64,000 nt of DNA. Origin: Thermoanaerobaculia bacterium (GTDB taxonomy: Bacteria > Acidobacteriota > Thermoanaerobaculia > UBA5066). Location of the stretch: the NCBI GenBank assembly GCA_963816185.1, contig CAWFJJ010000001.1, positions 320,001 to 384,000 on the forward strand, read 5' to 3'. Each line of letters starts with the position of its first letter. Within the stretch, counting starts at the first letter, position 1. This document shows, one piece after another, positions 18,458 through 35,326 of this stretch. Position numbers and translations under genes: made by a program. The notes under the pieces were generated by a model, which worked only from the letters and a program-made list of their open reading frames with translations, made no database searches and had not been told where the DNA came from.

Positions 18458-18811
18458 ATGCACGTGGAAGTGCGCAAGACCGGCGACGTCGTGATCGTCG
18501 ACCTCCAGGGCCGCCTCCTCGCGGGAGTCGGCGACGAGATCCTCCGCGACGTCATGAACGAGCTCCTCGCCGAGGGCTGGAGGAAGATCCTGCTCAACCT
18601 CTCCGAGGTGACCGCGATCGACAGCGCGGGGACGGGCGAGCTCGTCGCAAGCCACAAGATCTGCGAGCGATTCGGGGCGAAGCTCAAGCTCCTGAACCTG
18701 CACGAACGGGTGCGCAAGAGCCTGCACCTCGCTCAGCTCCTTCCCGTCTTCGAGGTCTACGACGAGGAGCGCGTTGCCCTCCGACACTACGGAGAGAGGA
18801 AGGCCCCCTGA
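18458..18811 (+). CDS. STAS-domain anti-sigma factor antagonist
   Basis: ILLNLSEVTAIDSAGTGELV; 117 aa. Confidence 0.9.
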   Translation: MHVEVRKTGDVVIVDLQGRLLAGVGDEILRDVMNELLAEGWRKILLNLSEVTAIDSAGTGELVASHKICERFGAKLKLLNLHERVRKSLHLAQLLPVFEVYDEERVALRHYGERKAP

Positions 18812-18833
18812 TTCCGGGCCTTTCCGGAGGGCC

Positions 18834-21416
18834 GTGTCCTCGTTCGGTGCTCGACTCGTCGCTCTCGGCCTCGTTCTCGTCGCTTCGCGTGCGGCGGCGC
18901 AGGGCTCCCTCCCGTGGCCCCGGATCGCGCTGACGCGCGTCGCGACCGGCTTCTCGAACCCCACCCAGGTGACGTCGGCGCACGACGGCACGGGCCGCCT
19001 CTTCGTCGTCGAGCAGAGGGGCCTCGTGAAGATCGTTAAGGACGGGGCCGTTCTGCCGACGCCGTTCCTCGACATCACCGACCGCGTGAGCGGTGGCGGC
19101 GAGCGCGGTCTTCTTTCGATCGTCTTCCCGCCGGGCCGCGCTCCGAAAGGCGAGTTCTACGCGGACTACACGGACGTCGCCGGCAACACGGCGGTCTCGC
19201 GATTTTTCGTCTCGGGCGATCCGAACGCGGCAAACGCGTCGTCCGAGGAGGTCCTGCTCAGAATCGTGCAGCCCTTCGCGAACCACAACGGCGGCCAGCT
19301 CGCGTTCGGGCCGGACGGGTACCTCTACATTGGGATGGGAGACGGCGGGTCGGCGGGCGATCCGAACAACAACGCTCAGAATCTCGAGAGTCTGCTCGGG
19401 AAGATTCTTCGAATGGATGTGCTGGGCGGGGCATCGCCCTATGGCATCCCGCCCGATAATCCTTTCGCAGGCTCTTCCTCCGCCCGTCCGGAAATCTGGG
19501 CCTATGGCCTCAGAAACCCGTGGCGGTTCTCGTTCGACCGCAAGACGGGCGACCTCTTCATCGGCGACGTGGGGCAGGGTGCGTGGGAGGAGGTCGACTT
19601 CCAGCCCGCGGGCAGCACCGGCGGCGAGAACTACGGGTGGCGGCTCTCGGAAGGAAATCACTGCTTCAACCCGTCCACGGGGTGCAGCTTCGCGGGCGTC
19701 ACGAGGCCCGTGGCCGAGTATGGGCACGTCGGCGGCAATTGCTCGATCACGGGCGGCTTCGTCTACCGCGGACGCGACTTCGCGCGCCTCTCCGGAATCT
19801 ACTTTTACGCGGACTACTGCAGCGGGCGCGTATGGGGCCTTCGCAACGGGGCCTTGGGCTGGGAGACTCAGGAGCTCCTGCAGCCCGGCTACGCCTTCAC
19901 GAGCCTCGGCGAGGATGACGCCGGCGAGGTCTACGCCGTGGACGGCACCTCGGGCGCCCTCTACCGGCTGGTGGACGCGGACGGGCCTCTGTCGGTCCTG
20001 ACCGTGCCGATCGTCGTCGACGTCAGCGGCCGGAACGGAACTCGCTTCGTCTCGGAAATCACGCTCGGGAACCGCGGGACCACGGACGCGTCCGTCGACG
20101 TGACATTCACGGCGGCGAGCGCTCTCCGGTCGACCGGAAGCGGCACGTTCACGACGACGGTCCCCGCGGGCCGGCAGCTCGTCTTCGCAGACGCCCTCCA
20201 GTGGCTGCGAAACAACGGTCTTCCCGTTCCGCTCGGCGACCAGGGCGGCACACTGCGCCTCGCGTACTCCGGGCTGTCGTCCGGCGACGCGGCGTTCGCA
20301 TCCGTGCGGACGCTCGCGGTGCTGCCCGGAGGCCGCGCGGGCCTCGCGTATCCGGCGCTCTCGCCCGTGGAGACTGCGGAGGCCGGAATCTCGATCTTCG
20401 GTCTGCGCGAGGACGCCGCGTTCCGGAGCAACCTCGCGCTCGTGAACGCGGCAGACCCGGCCGGAAAAACGAGCGTGCTCCTGCAGGTCACGCTCACGAG
20501 CGGCGACCCGGCCGACGCGCGGCGCTTCGCCCTCGCCCCCGTCAGCCTCGAGGCCGGGCAGTGGATGCAGCTCAACCAGGTCCTGCAGCGGGCGGGAATG
20601 ACGAACGGCTGGGCGACGGTCGAGCGCGTCGGCGGGGTCGATCCCTTCTACGCGTACGCCGTCGTCAACGACAACGTGACCGACGACGGCGCGTTCGTCG
20701 CGCCGGTCGCGGCCGGGCGGCGCGTATCAAGCCTGACGATACCGGCCGCAGTCCACACGTCCTCGTTCACGACCGAGCTCTGCTTGACGAATGCAGGTAC
20801 CGTTCCGATCCGACTCTCCTTCCGAGCCTTCTCGTCGCGAGACGTGGTTCTTCAGCCGCAGGAGCAGAGGTTCATTTCCGACATCCTCTCTTATCTCGAC
20901 GCCTCGGCCTCGGCCACGGCGCTCTGGATTTCTTCGAATGGTGGTGCAGCGGCGTTCCACGCGAGCGCGCGGACGTTCTCGTCCGCCGCGGGTGGGGGGA
21001 CATTCGGCGTGGCTTACGCGGGAATCTCGCGCGACGAGTCTCCTCTTTCGGAGGCATGGATCTACGGGCTGAAGCAAGACGGGCTGAGCCGTTCGAATGT
21101 CGCCCTCTCCGTCGTCGATGCGCCTTGGGTTTTTCCGTCGGACAATCCGCCTCCCAGCCCCATGACCGTCGATTTCTTCGACGGCGATTCGGGGTTATTC
21201 AGAGGGACCTCGGTCGTGCCGCTACGGCTTCGAGGGGACTGGCAGCAGGTGAATTCAGCGCTCTCGTCGTTCGGCATCCGCAACGGGTACGTGCGCGTTC
21301 GCGCTCCGGCTGGCAACTTCCAGCCCGTCCTCGTCTACGGCGTCGTCAACGACGGCGCCTCGCCGGGGCAGGGCACCGGGGACGGCAGCTATCTCGCGAT
21401 GACGTCCGTGAAGTAG
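18834..21416 (+). CDS. Glucose/sorbosone (PQQ-dependent) dehydrogenase beta-propeller with duplicated C-terminal domain
   Basis: RLFVVEQRG, GERGLL, NHNGGQLAFGPDGYLYIGMGDGG, IWAYGLRNPWRFSFD, ENYGW; GTG 18834 after GGAGG; C-terminal domain shared with other secreted proteins in the window. Confidence 0.87.
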   Translation: MSSFGARLVALGLVLVASRAAAQGSLPWPRIALTRVATGFSNPTQVTSAHDGTGRLFVVEQRGLVKIVKDGAVLPTPFLDITDRVSGGGERGLLSIVFPPGRAPKGEFYADYTDVAGNTAVSRFFVSGDPNAANASSEEVLLRIVQPFANHNGGQLAFGPDGYLYIGMGDGGSAGDPNNNAQNLESLLGKILRMDVLGGASPYGIPPDNPFAGSSSARPEIWAYGLRNPWRFSFDRKTGDLFIGDVGQGAWEEVDFQPAGSTGGENYGWRLSEGNHCFNPSTGCSFAGVTRPVAEYGHVGGNCSITGGFVYRGRDFARLSGIYFYADYCSGRVWGLRNGALGWETQELLQPGYAFTSLGEDDAGEVYAVDGTSGALYRLVDADGPLSVLTVPIVVDVSGRNGTRFVSEITLGNRGTTDASVDVTFTAASALRSTGSGTFTTTVPAGRQLVFADALQWLRNNGLPVPLGDQGGTLRLAYSGLSSGDAAFASVRTLAVLPGGRAGLAYPALSPVETAEAGISIFGLREDAAFRSNLALVNAADPAGKTSVLLQVTLTSGDPADARRFALAPVSLEAGQWMQLNQVLQRAGMTNGWATVERVGGVDPFYAYAVVNDNVTDDGAFVAPVAAGRRVSSLTIPAAVHTSSFTTELCLTNAGTVPIRLSFRAFSSRDVVLQPQEQRFISDILSYLDASASATALWISSNGGAAAFHASARTFSSAAGGGTFGVAYAGISRDESPLSEAWIYGLKQDGLSRSNVALSVVDAPWVFPSDNPPPSPMTVDFFDGDSGLFRGTSVVPLRLRGDWQQVNSALSSFGIRNGYVRVRAPAGNFQPVLVYGVVNDGASPGQGTGDGSYLAMTSVK

Positions 21417-21451
21417 GGTCGAAAACGGCCGGGAGCGTAAACTTCCGCGCC

Positions 21452-21784
21452 GTGAGAGCTGGTCTCGTCCGCGTCGCCGTGCTGGCCCTGCTCGCGCCGC
21501 TGGCGCTGGGCGGAGCGTTCGGGCACGTCGACGGCTTCGAGGTCCTCTCGCACGGCGCACACCTCTTCGCTCCCGACCATCCGGCCCACGCTCCGTTCGT
21601 CCCCGAGAAGGAACACCCGTGCGCAGCATGCGCCGTCGCGAATCTGACGCCTCCTGCTTTTGCGACCCTCCTCCTCGTTCCGCCGATCGTGGGGATCACT
21701 CGCGAGACGCAGTGGTCTTGGAGGGCGCCGACGCCCGCGCTTCCGGAACTCACTGGCCGCTCTCCGCCTATCCCGACCGCGTAG
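21452..21784 (+). CDS. Leader ORF 1 (110 aa): signal-like N-terminus, His-rich/CAAC core, C-terminal RSPP; DUF2946/CruR-like putative arrest peptide
   Basis: C-terminal part of track ORF 20201..21784; GTG 21452 lies 8 nt after TAAACT; paralog of 31965..32303 and 34991..35326. Confidence 0.8.
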   Translation: MRAGLVRVAVLALLAPLALGGAFGHVDGFEVLSHGAHLFAPDHPAHAPFVPEKEHPCAACAVANLTPPAFATLLLVPPIVGITRETQWSWRAPTPALPELTGRSPPIPTA

Positions 21785-21847
21785 ACGTTTTTCATTTCGT
21801 CCACGGTCGGGAGGCATAGCGCCTCCCCAATCGACACTCAGGGAGGC
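21766..21847 (+). promoter_or_regulatory. Putative four-segment translational attenuator (1:2 + 3:4 versus 2:3)
   Basis: TCCCGACCG 21771-79 pairs CGGTCGGGA 21804-12; GGGAGGC 21809-15 pairs GCCTCCC 21821-27, which alternatively pairs the SD GGGAGGC 21841-47. Confidence 0.65.
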
Positions 21848-21855
21848 TCGAAGAC

Positions 21856-22995
21856 ATGACCATTCGGTCATCACCGCTGAAAACGCTGTTCCTTCTTACT
21901 GTTCTCCTGCTCGCGGCGCATCCTGTCGCCGCGCAGACGGAACCTCCCCCGGCGGCGCCCGCACCCGACAGCCCGCCGCCTCAGGCGGGGGGCGGCGGAA
22001 GCCAGACGACGAACTACTTCAACCCCAGCGTCTCGGTCATCGGGAATTTCCTCGCCGTAGGGGGCCAGAACCAGGTTGAAAACCTGCCCAACGCGAGCCT
22101 GCGGGAATCGGAGCTCGGTCTCCAGGCGATCGTCGACCCATACGGGCGAGCCGATTTCTTTCTCTCCTTCGGCGAGCAGGGCGTCGAGGTGGAAGAGGGC
22201 TTCCTGACTTTCACCTCTCTGCCCGCGGGCCTGCTCGCGAAGGTGGGACGGATGCGCGTGTCGTTCGGCAAGATCAACACCCTTCACCTGCACGTGCTCC
22301 CGTGGCCGGACTCCCCCCTCCCGATCGTCAACCTCCTGGGAGGCGAGGAAGGGTGGATCGGAACGGGCGTCTCCCTCGCCGAGCTCGTGCCCTTGCCCGG
22401 AGATACGTTCTCGGAGATCACCGGACAGGTCTTCCGCGGGGATTCGGCGGGGTTGTTCGTCGCCCAGAAGCGGAGCGACCTCGCTTACAACGGGCACTAC
22501 CGGATCTTCCGCGACCTGAGCGACTCCACGAACCTCGACCTCGGTTTCTCCTACGGGCAGGGCCCGAACGGAATCGCCTCGAACGCGATGACGCGCCTCG
22601 AGGGAATCGATGCGACGTTTCGATGGAAGCCGCTCGTGCGCGGCACGTACCGCTCCGCTTCTTTGAGAGGGGAGTTCGTTCGCAGCAGGCGAGACCAGCC
22701 CGACGGCCGCCAGACGGCGCAAGGGTGGTTTCTCTCCGGCGAGTACCAGCTTGCCCAACGCTGGTTCGCCGGAGCGCGACTCGAGTCGTCCGACCACGCG
22801 GACGATTCCGCGAAGCGCGACACGGGCGTCGCCGCCACGCTGACCTTCTGGCCGAGCGAGTTCTCCCAGCTTCGCGGGGAGTTCCGGCGCCGCCGCTACG
22901 AAGGCTATCCGGGCGCGCCCGATATCTATACTGCCAACGAGGTCCTTCTCCAGGTGCAATTTGCGATCGGCGCGCACGGCGCGCATCCGTTCTGA
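21856..22995 (+). CDS. Putative zinc-regulated outer-membrane beta-barrel receptor/porin
   Basis: Signal peptide; FNPSVSVIGN, ELGLQAIVDPY, EVEEGFL, FGKINTLHLH, PSEFSQLR, C-terminal IGAHGAHPF; first gene of a ZnuA/ZnuB operon. Confidence 0.75.
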   Translation: MTIRSSPLKTLFLLTVLLLAAHPVAAQTEPPPAAPAPDSPPPQAGGGGSQTTNYFNPSVSVIGNFLAVGGQNQVENLPNASLRESELGLQAIVDPYGRADFFLSFGEQGVEVEEGFLTFTSLPAGLLAKVGRMRVSFGKINTLHLHVLPWPDSPLPIVNLLGGEEGWIGTGVSLAELVPLPGDTFSEITGQVFRGDSAGLFVAQKRSDLAYNGHYRIFRDLSDSTNLDLGFSYGQGPNGIASNAMTRLEGIDATFRWKPLVRGTYRSASLRGEFVRSRRDQPDGRQTAQGWFLSGEYQLAQRWFAGARLESSDHADDSAKRDTGVAATLTFWPSEFSQLRGEFRRRRYEGYPGAPDIYTANEVLLQVQFAIGAHGAHPF

Positions 22996-23005
22996 GGAAG
23001 GTTTC

Positions 23006-23920
23006 ATGAAAACGTTCAAGCTTCTGTTCGCCGCCCTTCTCCTTTCCTTCGCCTCGCCTCTCCTGGCGAAGATCCACGTCGTGTCGTCCCTCCAGGACTT
23101 CGCCTCGATCGCGGAGGCGATCGGGGGCGACCGGGTGGAGACGTACGCGCTGGCGAAGGGATATCAGGACCCGCATTTCGTGGACGCCAAGCCCTCGTTC
23201 ATCCTGAAGCTTTCCCGCGCCGACGTCCTGATCGTCGCCGGCCTCGAGCTCGAGATCGGATACCTGCCGCCGCTGATCGACCAGAGCCGCAACGACAGGA
23301 TTCACGTCGGCAGCGCCGGATATCTGGATGCTTCGATCGGCTGCGACATCCTCCAGCGGCCGACTCGGCAGGTCACACGCGCGATGGGTGACGTGCATCC
23401 GTACGGGAACCCGCACTACTGGACCGATCCGGAAAACGGCCGTGTGATCGCCTGGGCCGTCGCCGAGAAGCTGTCCGAGCTCGATCCCTCCGGGAAAGCC
23501 GTCTTCGAGAAGAACCTCGCCGCGTTCGAAGGGCTTCTGACCCAGAAAGAGAAGGAATGGAACGCGAAGATGGGTCCCTACGCGGGGACGAAGGTCGTGA
23601 CCTTCCACGACTCCTGGCCGAACTTCGCGAAGTACTTCAAGCTCGAAATCGCCGGGCACATCGAGCCGAAGCCGGGCATTCCGCCCACGCCCTCTCACAC
23701 ACTCGAGATCATCAACTTGATCCAGGCGCAGAAGATCCCGGTGATCCTCGTCGAACCCTACTTCGACAGCAAGACGCCGAAGTACATCGCACAGAAGACC
23801 GGCGCCGCGGTGGTCACGTTCTATCCGTCGGTCGGCGGGATACCGGAGATCAAGGACTACTTCGCGCTCTTCGATCACAACATCGACGCCTTCGTCGCGG
23901 CAAACAAGGCAAAGAAATAG
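23006..23920 (+). CDS. Metal ABC transporter substrate-binding protein (ZnuA/TroA family)
   Basis: QDPHFVDAKPS, GLELEIG, GDVHPYGNPHYWTDP, TFHDSW, IEPKPGIPPTPSH. Confidence 0.92.
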   Translation: MKTFKLLFAALLLSFASPLLAKIHVVSSLQDFASIAEAIGGDRVETYALAKGYQDPHFVDAKPSFILKLSRADVLIVAGLELEIGYLPPLIDQSRNDRIHVGSAGYLDASIGCDILQRPTRQVTRAMGDVHPYGNPHYWTDPENGRVIAWAVAEKLSELDPSGKAVFEKNLAAFEGLLTQKEKEWNAKMGPYAGTKVVTFHDSWPNFAKYFKLEIAGHIEPKPGIPPTPSHTLEIINLIQAQKIPVILVEPYFDSKTPKYIAQKTGAAVVTFYPSVGGIPEIKDYFALFDHNIDAFVAANKAKK

Positions 23921-23924
23921 ACAG

Positions 23925-24755
23925 ATGACGATCCTTCAGCTCCTCCTTCCTGCGTTCGTCGCGAGCCTCATCCTCACGGGAATCCACGCCTATCTCGGCG
24001 TTCACGTGGTCGAGCGGGGCGTCATCTTCGTGGACCTCTCGCTCGCGCAGATCGCGGCTCTCGGCACGACGGTCGCGTACCTCGCCGGATACGACCTGCA
24101 CTCCACGGCCGCTTACGTCTTCTCCCTCGGCTTCACGTTCCTAGGAGCCGCGATCTTCGCGTTCTCCCGCGTCCACCGTAAGACCCGCATCCCGCAGGAG
24201 GCGATCATCGGCATCGTCTACGCGGTCTCGGCGGCGGTCGCCATCCTCGTGATGTCGAAAGCGACGCAAGAGACGGAGCACCTGAAGGAGATGCTCGTCG
24301 GCAACATTCTTTCGGTGACGTGGGGGGAGCTGGCGAAGACCGCGTTTCTCTATTCCCTGGTGGGCCTGTTTCATTACATCTTCCGAAAGCGATTCCTCCT
24401 GATCTCGATGAACGAGCCGGAAGCGGAGCGGCAGGGCCTGAACATCCGGTGGTGGGACTTTCTCTTTTACATGTCCTTCGGATTCGTCGTGACGTCGTCG
24501 GTTGCGATCGCCGGCGTGCTCCTCGTCTTCTGCTTCCTCATCGTGCCTTCGGTGACCGCGATGCTCTTCGCCGAGCGGCTCGGGCCGAGACTCGCGATCG
24601 GCTGGACGATGGGAGTCGTCGTGTCGGCGCTCGGGGTGTGGTTCTCGTTTCAGCTCGACCTTCCGACCGGAGCGACCATCGTTGGAACCTTCGGGGCCGC
24701 GCTTCTCGTCATCGCGGGTTATCGGCGGGCGTTCCGGAAGCCGGCCGCCGCCTGA
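23925..24755 (+). CDS. Metal ABC transporter permease (ABC-3, ZnuB/MntB family)
   Basis: YLGVHVVERGVIFVDLSLAQIAALG, QEAIIGIVY, GVLLVFCFLIVP, LDLPTGATIV. Confidence 0.9.
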   Translation: MTILQLLLPAFVASLILTGIHAYLGVHVVERGVIFVDLSLAQIAALGTTVAYLAGYDLHSTAAYVFSLGFTFLGAAIFAFSRVHRKTRIPQEAIIGIVYAVSAAVAILVMSKATQETEHLKEMLVGNILSVTWGELAKTAFLYSLVGLFHYIFRKRFLLISMNEPEAERQGLNIRWWDFLFYMSFGFVVTSSVAIAGVLLVFCFLIVPSVTAMLFAERLGPRLAIGWTMGVVVSALGVWFSFQLDLPTGATIVGTFGAALLVIAGYRRAFRKPAAA

Positions 24756-29439: not shown

Positions 29440-31878
29440 CTAGAACTCAAACTTGATCCGCGCCGCCCACGTCCGCGGCGGAACCACGTGCGTACCTCCG
29501 AAAACGGACTGGAAGTTGTAGAGCCCCTTGACGTCGAAGGCGTTCAGGAGATCGCCCTGCAGCTCGAACGGGAGGCCGTATTTCTGGAGGCGCGCGCCGA
29601 GCGAGAAGCTCCAGATCGTGCGCGACTTGACGCGCTGGGGGTCCTCGTCGAACCGGATGTACGGCGCCGCGTACGCGGTGTCCGGGCTCGAGAGGACGTC
29701 GTCGATCGTGCCCGCGTCCGTGACGAGGCCCGAGTCGTAGCGTTGCGTCATGCCGGCCCAGAGGCCGGTCTGGCCGAAGTCGTAGAAGAAGCCGGCCTGC
29801 TCCTGGATGTCCTGGTCGTGGTCGATCAGGAAGCAGCCGCCGCCGAGGGTGTCGAGGGCGCCGGCGTCGAGGAATAGCCCGCCGACGAACGGGTTGCAGT
29901 ACTCCGCGTGCACGTGACCGACCGAGACGTAGCCCCTCAGGCCGCCGAGGACTGGCGCGAGGTCGAGCCGCGCGTTCCAGCCGTTCAGATTCCCGCTCTC
30001 GAAGTTGAGCGGAAAGACGATTCCCGTGTTGAAGAACTGATCCTGGTCGGCCGCGTTCTTCACCTTGCGATACCAGTACGAGACGTCGAGGCGCAGCTTC
30101 GATCCGATTCCCTGTTGGATCCCGGCGTTGTACACATCGTGCCGTTCGGAGAGATTGAAGAGCTGGCCGCCGCCGAGCGCCTGCGCGTCCTGGATCTCAG
30201 GCGGGGCGACCGATCTCGCCTGCGCGGAAGAGGACAAGAGGATGTTCTCGTACTCGGGCGTGATGAACATGCGGTTGTACGAGGCGCGGAACACGGTGCT
30301 CGTCGCCTCGAGGAGATACGCAACGCCGATGCGCGGCTGGAGCTGGCTCTCGGAAAGGAAGAGCTCGTTGTGGTCGAAGCGTACGCCGGCGTTCACGGTG
30401 AGGCCGTTCCACCGGATGTTGTCCTGCAGATACGCCGCGACGTACGTTCCCGTCTTCGAGTCGGCGAACTGGAAAACCGAGCCGCCGCGCGTGAGGTCGT
30501 ACGGCGCCAGGTTCGGGTTGTAGCCATCGGCGTTTGGGTCGTTGAAACCGGGGTCCGTGATGCCGAACGTGAACTGCTCCCGGATCGGAAAGCGTTTCGC
30601 CTGAACCCCGACCTTGAGCTCGTTGATACCCGCCGTCTTCGAAAGCGCGAAATTGATTCCCTGATTCTCGAGAGACCGGTTCTGGTCGGCCTGGACGGGC
30701 GTGTCGTAGGGCGAGGAATAGAGCGTCAGGCGGTTATCGCGACCGTAGGCCTGCCCCTCGACCACCCAGCCGCCGGGGAGAACGTTCTGATAGCCGAGGT
30801 TCGCGTTCCAGTCGTTGGACTGGATGCGCTGGTCCTGGCCGGCAACCTCCTGCGAGGGCAGGTTCGTGACATCACGTTTCGTCCGGCCGATGTTGCTCGT
30901 CAGGCGCCAGGAGGTCGACTCGTCCGCGGAGACGGCGTCGAGGCGGATGAAGGCCCGCAGCGAGTTGCCGACGTTGTGGAAGCTGTCGAACGACACGGGG
31001 TCGAGGAACCGATCGGAACGGGAGCCGTCGGCATCCGCGAACCATCCGAACCGCGCATTCCCGCCGCCGGCGGAGGCCGAAGCCGAGCCCGTGTTGAATC
31101 GTGCGCCTCCCACCGTCACGTCGCCTTTCACGCCGTTCGTTCCGAGGCCGGAGCGCGTCGTCAGGTTGATCACGCCGTTCGCCTTCTCGCCGTACTCCGC
31201 CGGGATGCCGCCCGTGACGACTTCGAGGCTCTGCGCGACGCTCGGATCCAGGGAGTTCGAGAACGTGATGCCGATCTGGTCCCCGATCGGCTGTCCGTCG
31301 ATGACGAGGAGCTGCTGAGAGTGCCCGCCCTGGAAGTGATAGCGGCCGTTCTCGTCCTGAGAGAAGCCCGGCGTCGAGGTCACGATCGACTCGAACGCCC
31401 GCCCCGGCACGGCGGCCGCGGTCCTCTGGATGAGCGACTTGTCGATGTCGATGTGGGTCATGGCCGTGTCGCTTTCCAGCTCGACGCCCTCCTTCTCGGC
31501 CGTCACGGACTCGGCCGCCGTCGTCTCGATCCCGAGCGAGATCTCGCGCGTCACGGGGACGCTCCCTCGCACATCCACGTCGGTGTGAAACGGGGTGAAG
31601 CCCTGCAGATTCGCCGTGAGGTGATACGGGTTCGGGGGCACGTTGTAGAAGAGGTAGCTTCCGTCGCCTCCCGACGTGGTCTGCTGCCGGTACCCGGTGA
31701 TGTCGTTCGCGAGAACGACCGTAACGCCCGGAAGAGGCTTGCCGTCCGGGCCGGCAACGTGTCCGCGGATCTGGCCGCCAGTGGCGGTCGACGCGGACGC
31801 CGGGTGCGAGCCGATGAAAAGGACCGCGAAGAGAAACGAGACAAATGCGGCGCTGCGCGCCGCGCTTCGAAAAGTCAT
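29440..31878 (-). CDS. TonB-dependent receptor with N-terminal carboxypeptidase-regulatory-like domain
   Basis: GQIRGHVAGPDGKPLPGVTV, VVTGGIPAEYG..GVINLTTRSG, LTVNAGVRFD, C-terminal ...ARIKFEF; Cys/His in loops (HVHAEYC, GGCFLIDHDQ); ATG 31878 with GTGGAGG SD. Confidence 0.9.
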   Translation of the reverse strand: MTFRSAARSAAFVSFLFAVLFIGSHPASASTATGGQIRGHVAGPDGKPLPGVTVVLANDITGYRQQTTSGGDGSYLFYNVPPNPYHLTANLQGFTPFHTDVDVRGSVPVTREISLGIETTAAESVTAEKEGVELESDTAMTHIDIDKSLIQRTAAAVPGRAFESIVTSTPGFSQDENGRYHFQGGHSQQLLVIDGQPIGDQIGITFSNSLDPSVAQSLEVVTGGIPAEYGEKANGVINLTTRSGLGTNGVKGDVTVGGARFNTGSASASAGGGNARFGWFADADGSRSDRFLDPVSFDSFHNVGNSLRAFIRLDAVSADESTSWRLTSNIGRTKRDVTNLPSQEVAGQDQRIQSNDWNANLGYQNVLPGGWVVEGQAYGRDNRLTLYSSPYDTPVQADQNRSLENQGINFALSKTAGINELKVGVQAKRFPIREQFTFGITDPGFNDPNADGYNPNLAPYDLTRGGSVFQFADSKTGTYVAAYLQDNIRWNGLTVNAGVRFDHNELFLSESQLQPRIGVAYLLEATSTVFRASYNRMFITPEYENILLSSSAQARSVAPPEIQDAQALGGGQLFNLSERHDVYNAGIQQGIGSKLRLDVSYWYRKVKNAADQDQFFNTGIVFPLNFESGNLNGWNARLDLAPVLGGLRGYVSVGHVHAEYCNPFVGGLFLDAGALDTLGGGCFLIDHDQDIQEQAGFFYDFGQTGLWAGMTQRYDSGLVTDAGTIDDVLSSPDTAYAAPYIRFDEDPQRVKSRTIWSFSLGARLQKYGLPFELQGDLLNAFDVKGLYNFQSVFGGTHVVPPRTWAARIKFEF

Positions 31879-31889
31879 GTCAGTCGATG

Positions 31890-31980
31890 CCTCCACGAAG
31901 AAAGCCTCTGATCGCGGAGGGTGCGTACCCCCCGACCGTGAATGACGACGTCGGAACGTGTCTTCTAAACGGCCAGGGAG
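31890..31980 (-). promoter_or_regulatory. Putative four-segment translational attenuator downstream of leader ORF 2
   Basis: mRNA CUCCCUGGCCGU (31980-69) pairs ACGGUCGGGGGG (31939-28); CGGGGGGU pairs ACCCUCCG (31922-15); CCUCCGCGA (31920-12) pairs UCGUGGAGG containing the SD (31898-90). Confidence 0.68.
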
Positions 31981-32303
31981 ACGGGGGGCGCGCGGGCGGG
32001 AAGCTCGGGAGCGGGGGCGAAGGTGATAGTCCGCTCGGCGCGGATCTCGAGCGCGCGGCGGACCTCGGGTGGGACGAGGAAGAGCGGTGCGGCTGTGGGT
32101 GCTACCAGCGAGGCGATCGCGCAGGCCGCGCAGGGGTGCTCCTTCTCCGGCACGAACGGCGCATGCGCGGGATGGTCCGGCGGGAAGAGGAACGTGCCGT
32201 GCGACAGCGTCTCGAAGCCGTCGACGTGCCCGAACGCGCCGCCGAGAGCGATCGGCGCGAGGGCGAGGACGACCAGCAGGCGCCGGAACCGGGTCAATCG
32301 CAC
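31965..32303 (-). CDS. Leader ORF 2 (112 aa): His-rich/CAAC core, C-terminal RAPP; DUF2946/CruR-like putative arrest peptide
   Basis: ...HVDGFETLSHGTFLFPPDHPAHAPFVPEKEHPCAAC...PELPARAPPVSLAV; lies 86 nt upstream of the TBDR; TAGGAT 6 nt before GTG. Confidence 0.85.
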   Translation of the reverse strand: MRLTRFRRLLVVLALAPIALGGAFGHVDGFETLSHGTFLFPPDHPAHAPFVPEKEHPCAACAIASLVAPTAAPLFLVPPEVRRALEIRAERTITFAPAPELPARAPPVSLAV

Positions 32304-34433: not shown

Positions 34434-34898
34434 CTATTTCTCCCGGCTCGCGGGGGGCGGGGCGGGCTGGGGCGAGGCCTCGAGGAAGATTCGCGCCTCG
34501 TCGGCGCCGCGAACGCAGGCGCTCGTGAGGGTTCCGTCCGGGTTCTTCCGGATTACGGAAAGGCTGGCCTGATCCGGGCCGAGCCGCATCATCTTCGTTC
34601 CGTCCGGCAACGTGATGACCTGCGGCTCGGCCGCGACCAGAGGGCGTCGTCCGAGAAGCTGGCGGGCCTCTTCGGGGGTCAGGGGACGGAGTGCTCCGGT
34701 CACGGGATCGCGCGCCACGGTCAGGGAGATCCCGGGCGCGGCCGAGGGCTTCACCGTAGCGGGAGCCGCAGCCTTCCTCGTTGCGGACTCCTTCGGCGCA
34801 GCGCTTGTCGCGGGCTCGTCCGCGCGGGCCGGGAAAGAGAGGAGAAGAAAGACGAGAATCGAAGGGGCGGAATGTCGCGCCGTTCGGAGGAGGATCAT
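34434..34898 (-). CDS. Small secreted protein (post-PEP-CTERM-1-like), partner of the PA peptidase
   Basis: Signal peptide; VARDPVTGALRPLTPEEARQL, LPDGT, KNPDGTLTSAC; AGGGAG SD. Confidence 0.65.
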   Translation of the reverse strand: MILLRTARHSAPSILVFLLLSFPARADEPATSAAPKESATRKAAAPATVKPSAAPGISLTVARDPVTGALRPLTPEEARQLLGRRPLVAAEPQVITLPDGTKMMRLGPDQASLSVIRKNPDGTLTSACVRGADEARIFLEASPQPAPPPASREK

Positions 34899-34990
34899 TT
34901 GTCTGGTCTCCCTATGTCGGCAAGAGCCTGCGCCGAGAGCGAGGCTGCTCGACCTTCGAAGAAATCCGTTTTACGACTGATGAAGGTCGG

Positions 34991-35326
34991 CTACGCGCGA
35001 GCCAGGCAGGGAGGGGAGCGTCCGGGAAGCTCGGGGAGAATTGGAGCGTGCTGCACGCGCTCGGCGTGAACCGGATGCGCGAGACGGATTTCGGGCGGAC
35101 TCAGGAAGAGGGGTGCGATGACCGGCGGCAGGAGGTTTGCTACCGCGCAGGCGGCGCACGGGTGCTCCTTCTCGGGCACGAACGGCGCGTGCGCGGGGTG
35201 GTCCGGCGGGAAGAGGAACGTGCCGTGCGACAGCGTCTCCAAGCCGTCGACGTGCCCGAACGCGCCGCCGAGAGCGATCGGCGCGAGGGCCGCGAGGACG
35301 ACGATCCGGAAGAGCCGCCTTTTCAT
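34991..35326 (-). CDS. Leader ORF 3 (111 aa): His-rich/CAAC core, C-terminal RSPP; paralog of leaders 1 and 2
   Basis: Core nearly identical to leader 2, with mostly third-position changes; PELPGRSPPCLARA; TAGAAT 10 nt before ATG. Confidence 0.85.
   Translation of the reverse strand: MKRRLFRIVVLAALAPIALGGAFGHVDGLETLSHGTFLFPPDHPAHAPFVPEKEHPCAACAVANLLPPVIAPLFLSPPEIRLAHPVHAERVQHAPILPELPGRSPPCLARA

Follow-up and report, generated by a model that had tools for sequence, protein, structure and literature searches.

The stretch of DNA analysed here (the window; 64,000 nucleotides (nt) of contig CAWFJJ010000001.1 from a Thermoanaerobaculia bacterium of the phylum Acidobacteriota) contains a 110-aa open reading frame (ORF), designated leader-1 (21452–21784, plus strand; GTG start, TAG stop at 21782–84), which ends in R103-S-P-P106, IPTA and the stop codon and directly precedes the gene of an outer-membrane β-barrel-like protein. 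We propose, with a probability of about 0.5, that 21766–21858 is the output module of a CruR/CutF-type nascent-peptide sensor, in which a ribosome stalled at RSPP would unmask the next gene's Shine–Dalgarno (SD) sequence through a relay of RNA helices. The switch is present in silico for the window sequence and recurs, by the same kind of folding, in a paralogue.

Results

Mutually exclusive helices between leader-1 and the downstream start codon

The module consists of four segments, all on the plus strand. Segment 1 has the core TCCCGACCG (21771–79). Its extended form of 14 nt (21766–21779) consists of GCC, a bulge of UA and UCCCGACCG; it is part of the ORF and forms a helix with segment 2. 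Segment 2, CGGUCGGGAGGC (21804–21815), includes CGGTCGGGA at 21804–12 and can pair with either segment 1 or segment 3; its last seven bases (GGGAGGC, 21809–15) are an exact copy of the SD heptamer. Segment 3, GCCUCCC (GCCTCCC in the DNA; 21821–21827), is an intergenic anti-SD that can pair with segment 2 or with the SD, and segment 4 is the SD itself, GGGAGGC (21841–21847), which ends 8 nt before the ATG (21856–58) of the downstream gene. A nested hairpin, GACG...CGUC (21784–21801), stands just after the stop codon within helix 1:2, and an equivalent is present in orthologues. The original prediction, made from the letters of the window, had placed the segments, the SD and the ATG at exactly these positions; the arrangement is confirmed and exceeds chance, and its interpretation is supported in part.

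The minimum free energy (MFE) structure that RNAfold gives for 21740–21870 combines helices 1:2 and 3:4 at −50.0 kcal/mol (z = −3.66; 0 of 200 shuffles as stable), and is identical with the SD-burying OFF fold that had been predicted. Because helix 1:2 extends in it to GCC 21766–68 paired with GGC 21813–15, all of segment 2 is occupied. The unconstrained ensemble contains helix 1:2 with a probability of 0.95 and helix 3:4 with 0.99. In isolation, helices 1:2, 2:3 and 3:4 have energies of −15.7, −14.7 and −13.4 kcal/mol, and a ribosome-free structure on which 2:3 is imposed lies 5.5 kcal/mol above the MFE.

The R-S-P-P codons (CGC TCT CCG CCT, 21758–21769) are the putative arrest site. RSPP belongs to the arrest-permissive RxPP motifs, which are described as depleted from proteomes, and the RAPP of CruR is reported to arrest in vitro with the P and A sites occupied by its two Pro codons (PMC12992588). 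By analogy with the CruR toeprint, Pro105 (21764–66) would occupy the P site and Pro106 the A site, and the footprint of the stalled ribosome, approximately 21749–21779, would include the whole extended segment 1, as the original prediction supposed. When 21750–85 or 21752–79 was forced to be unpaired in contexts of 131, 201 and 351 nt, helix 2:3 rose to 0.87–0.98 and helix 3:4 fell to 0.11 or less, which bears out the claim that the helices are mutually exclusive. SD accessibility did not stay unchanged under this constraint: SD pairing fell from 0.98 to 0.44, with four of the seven SD bases freed. A fall of this size was matched by 2 of 500 dinucleotide shuffles of 21766–21840, and the fall together with full burial by 1 of 500; the rare feature is therefore burial combined with release on blocking segment 1. 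The layout found in the window is of the ermC type, with exclusive helices 1:2, 2:3 and 3:4, segment 1 under the presumed stalled ribosome and the SD as segment 4.

The triple motif GGGAGGC/GCCTCCC/GGGAGGC occurs once in the window and in none of 100 window shuffles. The 2:3 hairpin (GGGAGGC...GCCTCCC) is found at only two loci of the 5.09-Mb genome, and hence is no repeat; its second copy is at G000 C24:301195, outside the window. A looser search for an SD-like sequence, an anti-SD, an SD and a start codon gave six matches in the 5.09 Mb, two of them at leader-1 and leader-3. The other four (words within about 60 nt; G000 C7:61999 (+), C25:181216 (+), C25:200557 (−) and C1:429083 (−)) also lie outside the window and could be further SD-masking switches or chance matches. 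An Rfam scan of 20500–23000 gave no family at threshold, the best hit being a chance match of the hairpin to a 27-nt frameshift element (22.5 bits; gathering threshold, 34).

Conservation of leader-1 and its C-terminal motif

Leader-1 is a conserved gene, not a short leader: tblastn located it directly 5' of an orthologue of the gene for the 379-aa β-barrel-like protein in many genomes of the same genus, and the orthologues of the leader-1 family always lie on the same strand, directly 5' of exported or outer-membrane genes. The genome matches were all in metagenome-assembled genomes (MAGs) of Thermoanaerobaculia/Acidobacteriota, and a contig scan with the family alignment retrieved solely loci from such MAGs, with no added diversity. 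Ninety-five copies have a complete C-terminus, 39 from family genomes and 56 from the 59 loci of a metagenome search, in which the three others were cut by contig ends and left out. R[SA]PP is kept in 39/39 and 56/56 of these, three to seven codons before the stop; leader-1 itself reads G-R-S-P-P-I-P-T-A-stop in frame, with RSPP four codons short of the stop.

H25, H43, H46, H55, C57, C60, R103, P105 and P106 are invariant in the 25 aligned family sequences, and a near-invariant block (GHVDG..LS.G..F.PDHP.H.PF....EH.CA.CA) is followed by a variable linker. C57-A-A-C60 forms a CxxC, invariant in 25/25, that is a putative metal-type motif. The N-terminus has basic residues and a hydrophobic run, VAVLALLAPLALGGAFG, ahead of the conserved HVDG and looks signal-peptide-like by inspection; the protein is probably exported. 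Residues 20–61 (window 21452–21640) are almost invariant and His-rich, above the conservation typical of leader peptides. As this N-terminal conservation goes far beyond that of a typical leader peptide, the product may have a function of its own besides, or a very specific ligand site.

Codon usage at the putative stall site

Codon choice at the motif suggests selection at the RNA level. In 88 unique leader-family ORFs, CCT encodes the first Pro of R[SA]PP in 75% and the second in 48%, with CCC at the second in a further 38%; at the other Pro codons of the same ORFs, CCT accounts for 6% of 727 and 5% of 537 (1,264 in total). Likewise, the Ser of the motif is encoded by TCT in 55% of 76 cases and the remaining Ser codons are TCT in 5% of 420. 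The genome-wide shares are 9.6% for CCT and 5.8% for TCT, and CCT makes up 5% within the last 30 codons outside S-P-P. The pyrimidine bias is limited to three codons, and there is thus no general C/T-rich, rut-like tract. The biased series UCU-CCU-CCN yields CUCCUCC, the complement of the SD and hence an anti-SD, and a 16S-tail-like sequence fitting the canonical anti-SD is present in the genome.

The first Pro codon is CCG in 5 of the 39 genome loci, including the leader-1 of the window. Among the loci listed, the window, L048 and L055 have an intergenic SD partner, L052 is mixed and L043 has an ambiguous start. CCG at this position weakens direct pairing with the SD in the window, and the relay would be used instead. 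A broader reading is tentative, and we lean against it as a whole: that the stall codons of this Thermoanaerobaculia clade are dual-coded, as S-P-P and as anti-SD, so that the stalled ribosome would physically occupy the mask, that a synonymous break such as the window CCG leads to a decoy-SD relay, and that three paralogous sensors within 15 kb gate three separate outer-membrane or uptake operons at the level of translation. As part of this reading, the leaders may form a family of exported metal sensors to which the Pfam model of DUF2946 is blind. A limited search of the literature on arrest-peptide systems found no statement that Pro codons themselves serve as an anti-SD, a point on which the supplements of those papers could bear.

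SD masking in relatives

SD masking is enriched at leader-linked genes. In folds of −115 to +9 around the start codon, 18 of 31 leader-linked genes (median 0.995) and 27 of 144 background genes (median 0.75) had an SD pairing probability of 0.95 or more; since the relatives share ancestry and are not independent samples, the significance of this enrichment is overstated. In the subgroup of the window (class B; 20 distinct RNAs with spacers of 65–78 nt), GGGAGG is invariant in all 20, and the probability that the SD is unpaired is 0.02 or less in 19. The partner of the SD is segment 3 in ten class B RNAs, the window included, and the stall-codon region in the other ten. Blocking the stall footprint released the SD in 10/10 of the latter, direct-type RNAs (0.32–0.75 unpaired). 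The RNAalifold consensus of the first nine class B RNAs is the direct form, with the Pro codons paired to the SD and 2:3 formed.

Among the loci listed, the orthologues with short spacers (57–62 nt, TTG start) have as MFE structure one long irregular hairpin, whose outer helix joins the S-P-P codons to the SD. At L007, L011, L014, L018–L022, L024, L026, L030, L039 and L046, the outer-membrane gene apparently starts with TTG (N-terminus LKE/LKV...). The spacer of this group (class A) folds over its whole length into one nested hairpin, with compensatory pairs in the inner stem only, as seen in a column-wise covariation analysis in which gaps misalign the SD in A2. Other subgroups show, by inspection, 1:2 pairing in shifted registers and with different sequences. 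The conservation excess of the leader-1 spacer is modest (0.42–0.78 versus 0.35–0.74 at fourfold sites). Judged from these sequences, the family as a whole has not conserved the relay; the general rule appears to be an SD masked by sequence under or next to the stalled ribosome, mostly by the stall codons directly.

Paralogous leaders in the same cluster

Two paralogues of leader-1, 61–64% identical to it, lie 10–14 kb away on the opposite strand, which makes three sensor-like ORFs in one cluster of about 15 kb. The leader-3 region (31873–32303, minus strand; ORF 32303–31965, ending RAPPVSLAV-stop) has an 86-nt spacer with a four-segment layout, and thus repeats the relay with helix sequences unlike those of leader-1. 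The fold with 1:2 and 3:4 is predicted in 9/9 close relatives, and under the stall constraint 2:3 is clean in six, partial in two and absent in one. Helix 2:3 of this group is 100% paired, with a double change of U-A for C-G in the window copy. The leader-3 spacer is 93–95% identical to those of the relatives, and the identity at fourfold sites is 43% in the flanking receptor gene and 62–75% in the leader ORF. The gene downstream (31878–29440) encodes an 812-aa, TonB-receptor-like protein with a Plug domain.

The leader-2 region (34893–35326, minus strand) comprises an ORF (35326–34991) ending RSPPCLARA-stop and a 92-nt spacer; for its SD, AGGGAGA, the predicted partner is the S-P-P codons. 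Downstream are genes for a 154-aa protein with a post-PEP-CTERM domain and a 695-aa protease-like protein with a PA domain.

Proposed mechanism and alternatives

That there is an arrest, that it depends on metal, which metal acts and in which direction control runs are all inferences; we propose the following cycle. With no ribosome at RSPP, the 14 nt of segment 1 at the end of the ORF would pair with segment 2 and segment 3 with the SD, so that initiation on the genes for the outer-membrane barrel and the ZnuA-like and ZnuB-like proteins would be blocked. A ribosome at RSPP would cover segment 1; the decoy, segment 2, would then capture segment 3, and the exposed SD could serve initiation. 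The SD would be 62 nt ahead of the stalled ribosome, which leaves room for a second ribosome to bind. After release, the five bases of segment 2 outside helix 2:3 (21804–08) could serve segment 1 as a toehold and so return the switch to OFF. By analogy with the uptake system of CruR, a sufficient supply of metal would end the arrest and shut the operon off.

Several observations weigh against this proposal. Arrest at RSPP in this organism is itself putative. The original prediction expected a free SD in the ON state; pairing does fall, but at 0.44 paired the SD is only about half free, and in longer 5' contexts the freed SD pairs with other C/U-rich partners (0.51–0.88 paired under the constraint). 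SD burial is common in this genome of 67% G+C (of the 144 background genes, all of which have a GGAGG SD, 27 show a burial of 0.95 or more) and reaches 0.98 or more in 40 of 500 shuffles; since it is so frequent, we dropped it as a stand-alone argument. The codon bias might instead arise because rare codons at the arrest site are decoded slowly and aid arrest. The predicted ermC-style relay holds in silico for the window sequence and recurs in leader-3; among relatives, segment 3 is never the SD partner in 10 of the 20 class B orthologues, where 2:3 is constitutive; only 3 of the 10 relay-type RNAs (window, L037 and L038) flip to 2:3 on blocking, and 3:4 stays more stable than 2:3 in 7 of these 10.

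Covariation does not significantly support the helices either. Helix 1:2 in the register of the window has 63.9% of its cells paired, with no compensatory change, below shuffles. Without a fixed register, cognate segment 1/2 duplexes average −13.9 kcal/mol versus −12.1 kcal/mol and rank third of 120 group permutations, a weak test because the groups were defined from the same segments. Helix 2:3 is 84.3% paired and shows one change from G-C to A-U in two sequences, a result that 116 of 500 shuffles reach, and the covariation of 2:3 in the leader-3 group is matched by 62 of 500. Helix 3:4 is 90% paired across class B and cannot covary because the SD is invariant.

An explanation that we regard as unlikely is that the locus works in the manner of CruR, the ribosome stalled at RSPP chiefly shielding the transcript from Rho and its release allowing Rho to load onto the ORF's C-rich 3' half and to terminate transcription before or within the next gene; the helices would in this case be pause or structural elements, or would solely block translation, with Rho polarity as the consequence. 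CruR, which has the same layout of a CxxC and a C-terminal RxPP 5' of an outer-membrane uptake gene, is reported to act through Rho (PMC9426467). The GC skew of leader-1 is −0.19 to −0.35 in windows over 21520–21699 and −0.29 over 21760–21839, and 21000–22200 contains no intrinsic terminator. The spacer of 71 nt is, however, almost fully structured and shorter than the 162 nt of CruR, the pyrimidine codon bias is restricted to S-P-P instead of being spread over the last 30 codons, and Rho alone accounts neither for the complementarity to the SD nor for the decoy copy of it. Rho action and SD unmasking are not mutually exclusive, and a contribution of Rho is compatible with the stall-dependent relay because an untranslated downstream gene invites polarity. 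The original prediction had set the locus against the Rho-dependent mode of CruR; the C>G stretch inside the ORF (about 21520–21699) leaves room for a Rho component.

We are more doubtful still of direct masking or plain coupling, in which any ribosome at the end of the ORF melts the structure and 2:3 is a constitutive element inherited from direct-type relatives. The ten direct-type orthologues, in which 2:3 is formed in both states, and the class B consensus are of this form, the logic is that of SecM and CutF, and a terminating ribosome also opens 1:2. In the window, direct masking would have to take the form of a bulged duplex, GCCU-AU-CCC with GGGAGGC, or of helix 1:2; yet the probability of pairing between the SD and the stall region is 0.00 in the window ensemble, because Pro1 is CCG. 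In addition, the footprint of a terminating ribosome opens 1:2 and leaves 3:4 largely formed in two of three contexts (0.67, 0.74 and 0.22), and the exact SD duplicate in segment 2 is given no role.

That there is no switch at all, leader-1 being a small periplasmic metal-binding protein with RSPP as a structural or sorting feature and the helices being G+C-driven chance or mRNA-stabilising hairpins, is very improbable, for although the first 60 residues are far more conserved than a usual leader peptide, SD burial is frequent by chance in the genome and covariation is not significant, this view is at odds with the position-specific synonymous bias at S-P-P, joint burial and release in only 1/500 shuffles, a leader-3 spacer 93–95% conserved against 43% at fourfold sites, an RxPP motif depleted from proteomes and known to arrest (PMC12992588), and an ORF that always has exported or outer-membrane genes directly 3' of it on the same strand.

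Relation of leader-1 to DUF2946 proteins

Sequence models do not place leader-1 in the CutF family. The Pfam model PF11162 (DUF2946) matched none of the three paralogues of the window, leader-1 giving no match even at E-values up to 10; a six-frame search of the genome with PF11162 matched neither leader locus, and Pfam and NCBIfam returned nothing for the small ORFs. Comparison of the 25-sequence alignment with four DUF2946 proteins of the same phylum by hhalign gave a probability of 7.7% and a pairwise E-value of 0.0045, over the signal/His/CxxC region only. These four proteins carry H-C-x-x-C and end in ...RGPP or ...RAPP. In the Atlas, a neighbouring cluster has PF11162 on 13% of its members, which we take as a lead only.

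The architecture does agree. CutF-like proteins are defined by a Sec signal, a Cys/His motif, a PP among the last 15 residues and spacers mostly shorter than 100 nt, and frequently have TonB-like neighbours (PMC9973294). Leader-1, at 110 aa, is below the limit of 150 aa, has P105-P106 five and four residues from its end, and is followed on the same strand, after a 71-nt spacer, by a gene of presumed metal homeostasis. As the architecture fits and the sequence model does not, we term leader-1 CruR/CutF-like by its probable mode of action, judged from this layout, and not as a demonstrated member of the family.

Downstream genes and surroundings

The presumed target gene (21856–22995, plus strand) encodes a 379-aa, signal-bearing outer-membrane β-barrel-like protein. 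The original prediction called it a receptor, which does not hold in the classical sense: the protein matched no Pfam family above threshold (only Porin_4, E = 0.014), has neither a Plug nor a TonB-receptor domain, and gave nothing with NCBIfam. Its Atlas neighbours (360–400 aa) carry automatic names such as zinc-regulated or TonB-dependent receptor or porin, a lead only; the receptor naming of this family of small barrels is likely a propagated misnaming. Immediately 3' are genes for a ZnuA-family substrate-binding protein and an ABC-3 permease (22961–24755, plus strand), and the three genes probably form one operon. No ABC ATPase gene adjoins 22961–24755 on that strand; the ORFs that follow, from 24758 onwards, are on the minus strand.

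Upstream, a gene for an 880-aa protein with a glucose/sorbosone dehydrogenase (GSDH) domain (18774–21416) ends 35 nt before the start of leader-1. Scans of 21000–22200 for sigma-70 promoters and intrinsic terminators found none, and leader-1 may be co-transcribed with the GSDH gene as there is no sigma-70-like promoter between them. Only two metatranscriptome runs contained a small part of the window, in contigs from relatives (85–95% alike), one of which (828 nt) spans parts of the ORF and the downstream gene; such contigs cannot show a single transcript, its ends or its level, DNA carry-over is possible, and they were not used as evidence.

Discussion

The new elements of the proposed system are its clade, the RSPP motif, stall codons dual-coded as anti-SD, the decoy-SD relay and the three paralogous sensors in one cluster. 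If confirmed, the system would bring CruR/CutF-type metal sensing by nascent chains into Acidobacteriota and into the translational control of uptake-type operons, and would present two interchangeable RNA output designs, stall-codon masking and a four-segment relay, in one protein family. It would also be a clear case of arrest-motif codon choice shaped by RNA function, and the position-specific CCU/UCU bias would then be a simple signature for finding such switches in other genomes.

The ermC and cat attenuators consist of four segments, of which 1:2 and 3:4 form the OFF state; a ribosome stalled over segment 1 shifts the RNA to 2:3 and frees segment 4, which holds the SD. An antibiotic induces the stall in ermC, on a leader of about 19 codons. 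The window shares the four-segment layout with the SD in segment 4. Unlike in ermC, the sensor would here be a probably exported protein of 110 aa whose RxPP arrest motif is intrinsic, and helix 3:4 does not include the start codon.

SecM-secA, MifM-yidC2, VemP-secDF2 and ApdA/ApdP, as described in PMC10987492 and PMC12992588, likewise combine an exported nascent chain, a C-terminal arrest motif and an SD-sequestering stem that the stall disrupts; in the SecM type, the stalled ribosome is described as disrupting this stem (PMC10987492). The arrest motif of ApdA/ApdP is RAPP-like, as in the leader family (PMC10987492, PMC12992588). These systems are described as monitoring Sec/YidC activity and controlling translocation factors, whereas the candidate targets of the leaders are an outer-membrane barrel, a metal ABC transporter, a TonB-type receptor and a protease-like protein.

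CruR of Bordetella pertussis is reported to arrest in the absence of Cu and thereby to keep Rho from terminating transcription in a 162-nt spacer, the rut site falling in a stretch of rare codons that is C/T-rich, with C>G (PMC9426467). As in CruR-bfrG, leader-1 has a CxxC, an RxPP at the C-terminus, three to four residues short of the stop (its arginine is R103 of 110 residues, and that of CruR R139 of 145), a position 5' of an outer-membrane uptake gene and a C>G stretch in the ORF. CruR differs in being Rho-dependent, with a spacer said to be incompatible with coupling, and the leader-1 spacer of 71 nt is complementary to the SD.

The original prediction took the contrast with CruR as its mark of novelty and overlooked CutF. 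Stall-dependent SD unmasking is established for SecM, MifM, VemP and CutF, and the principle is not new; it is already in print for metal homeostasis, since the stalling of CutF, a DUF2946 protein, is described as melting the stem-loop by which the cutO SD is covered (PMC9973294; 10.1101/2025.02.05.636593). CutF-cutO of Rhodobacter capsulatus and leader-1 have in common a small ORF, for leader-1 probably an exported one, with a Cys motif and a C-terminal proline stall motif, directly 5' of a metal-homeostasis gene, a spacer shorter than 100 nt, and an mRNA structure over the downstream SD that the stalled ribosome opens, which for leader-1 is a prediction. In the accounts cited, CutF has a CxxxC, a PPP, a detoxifying oxidase as its target and a single stem-loop with an anti-SD in the spacer; the leaders described here have a CxxC with several His residues, R[SA]PP and uptake-like target genes, and would mask the SD with the stall codons or through a decoy-SD relay.

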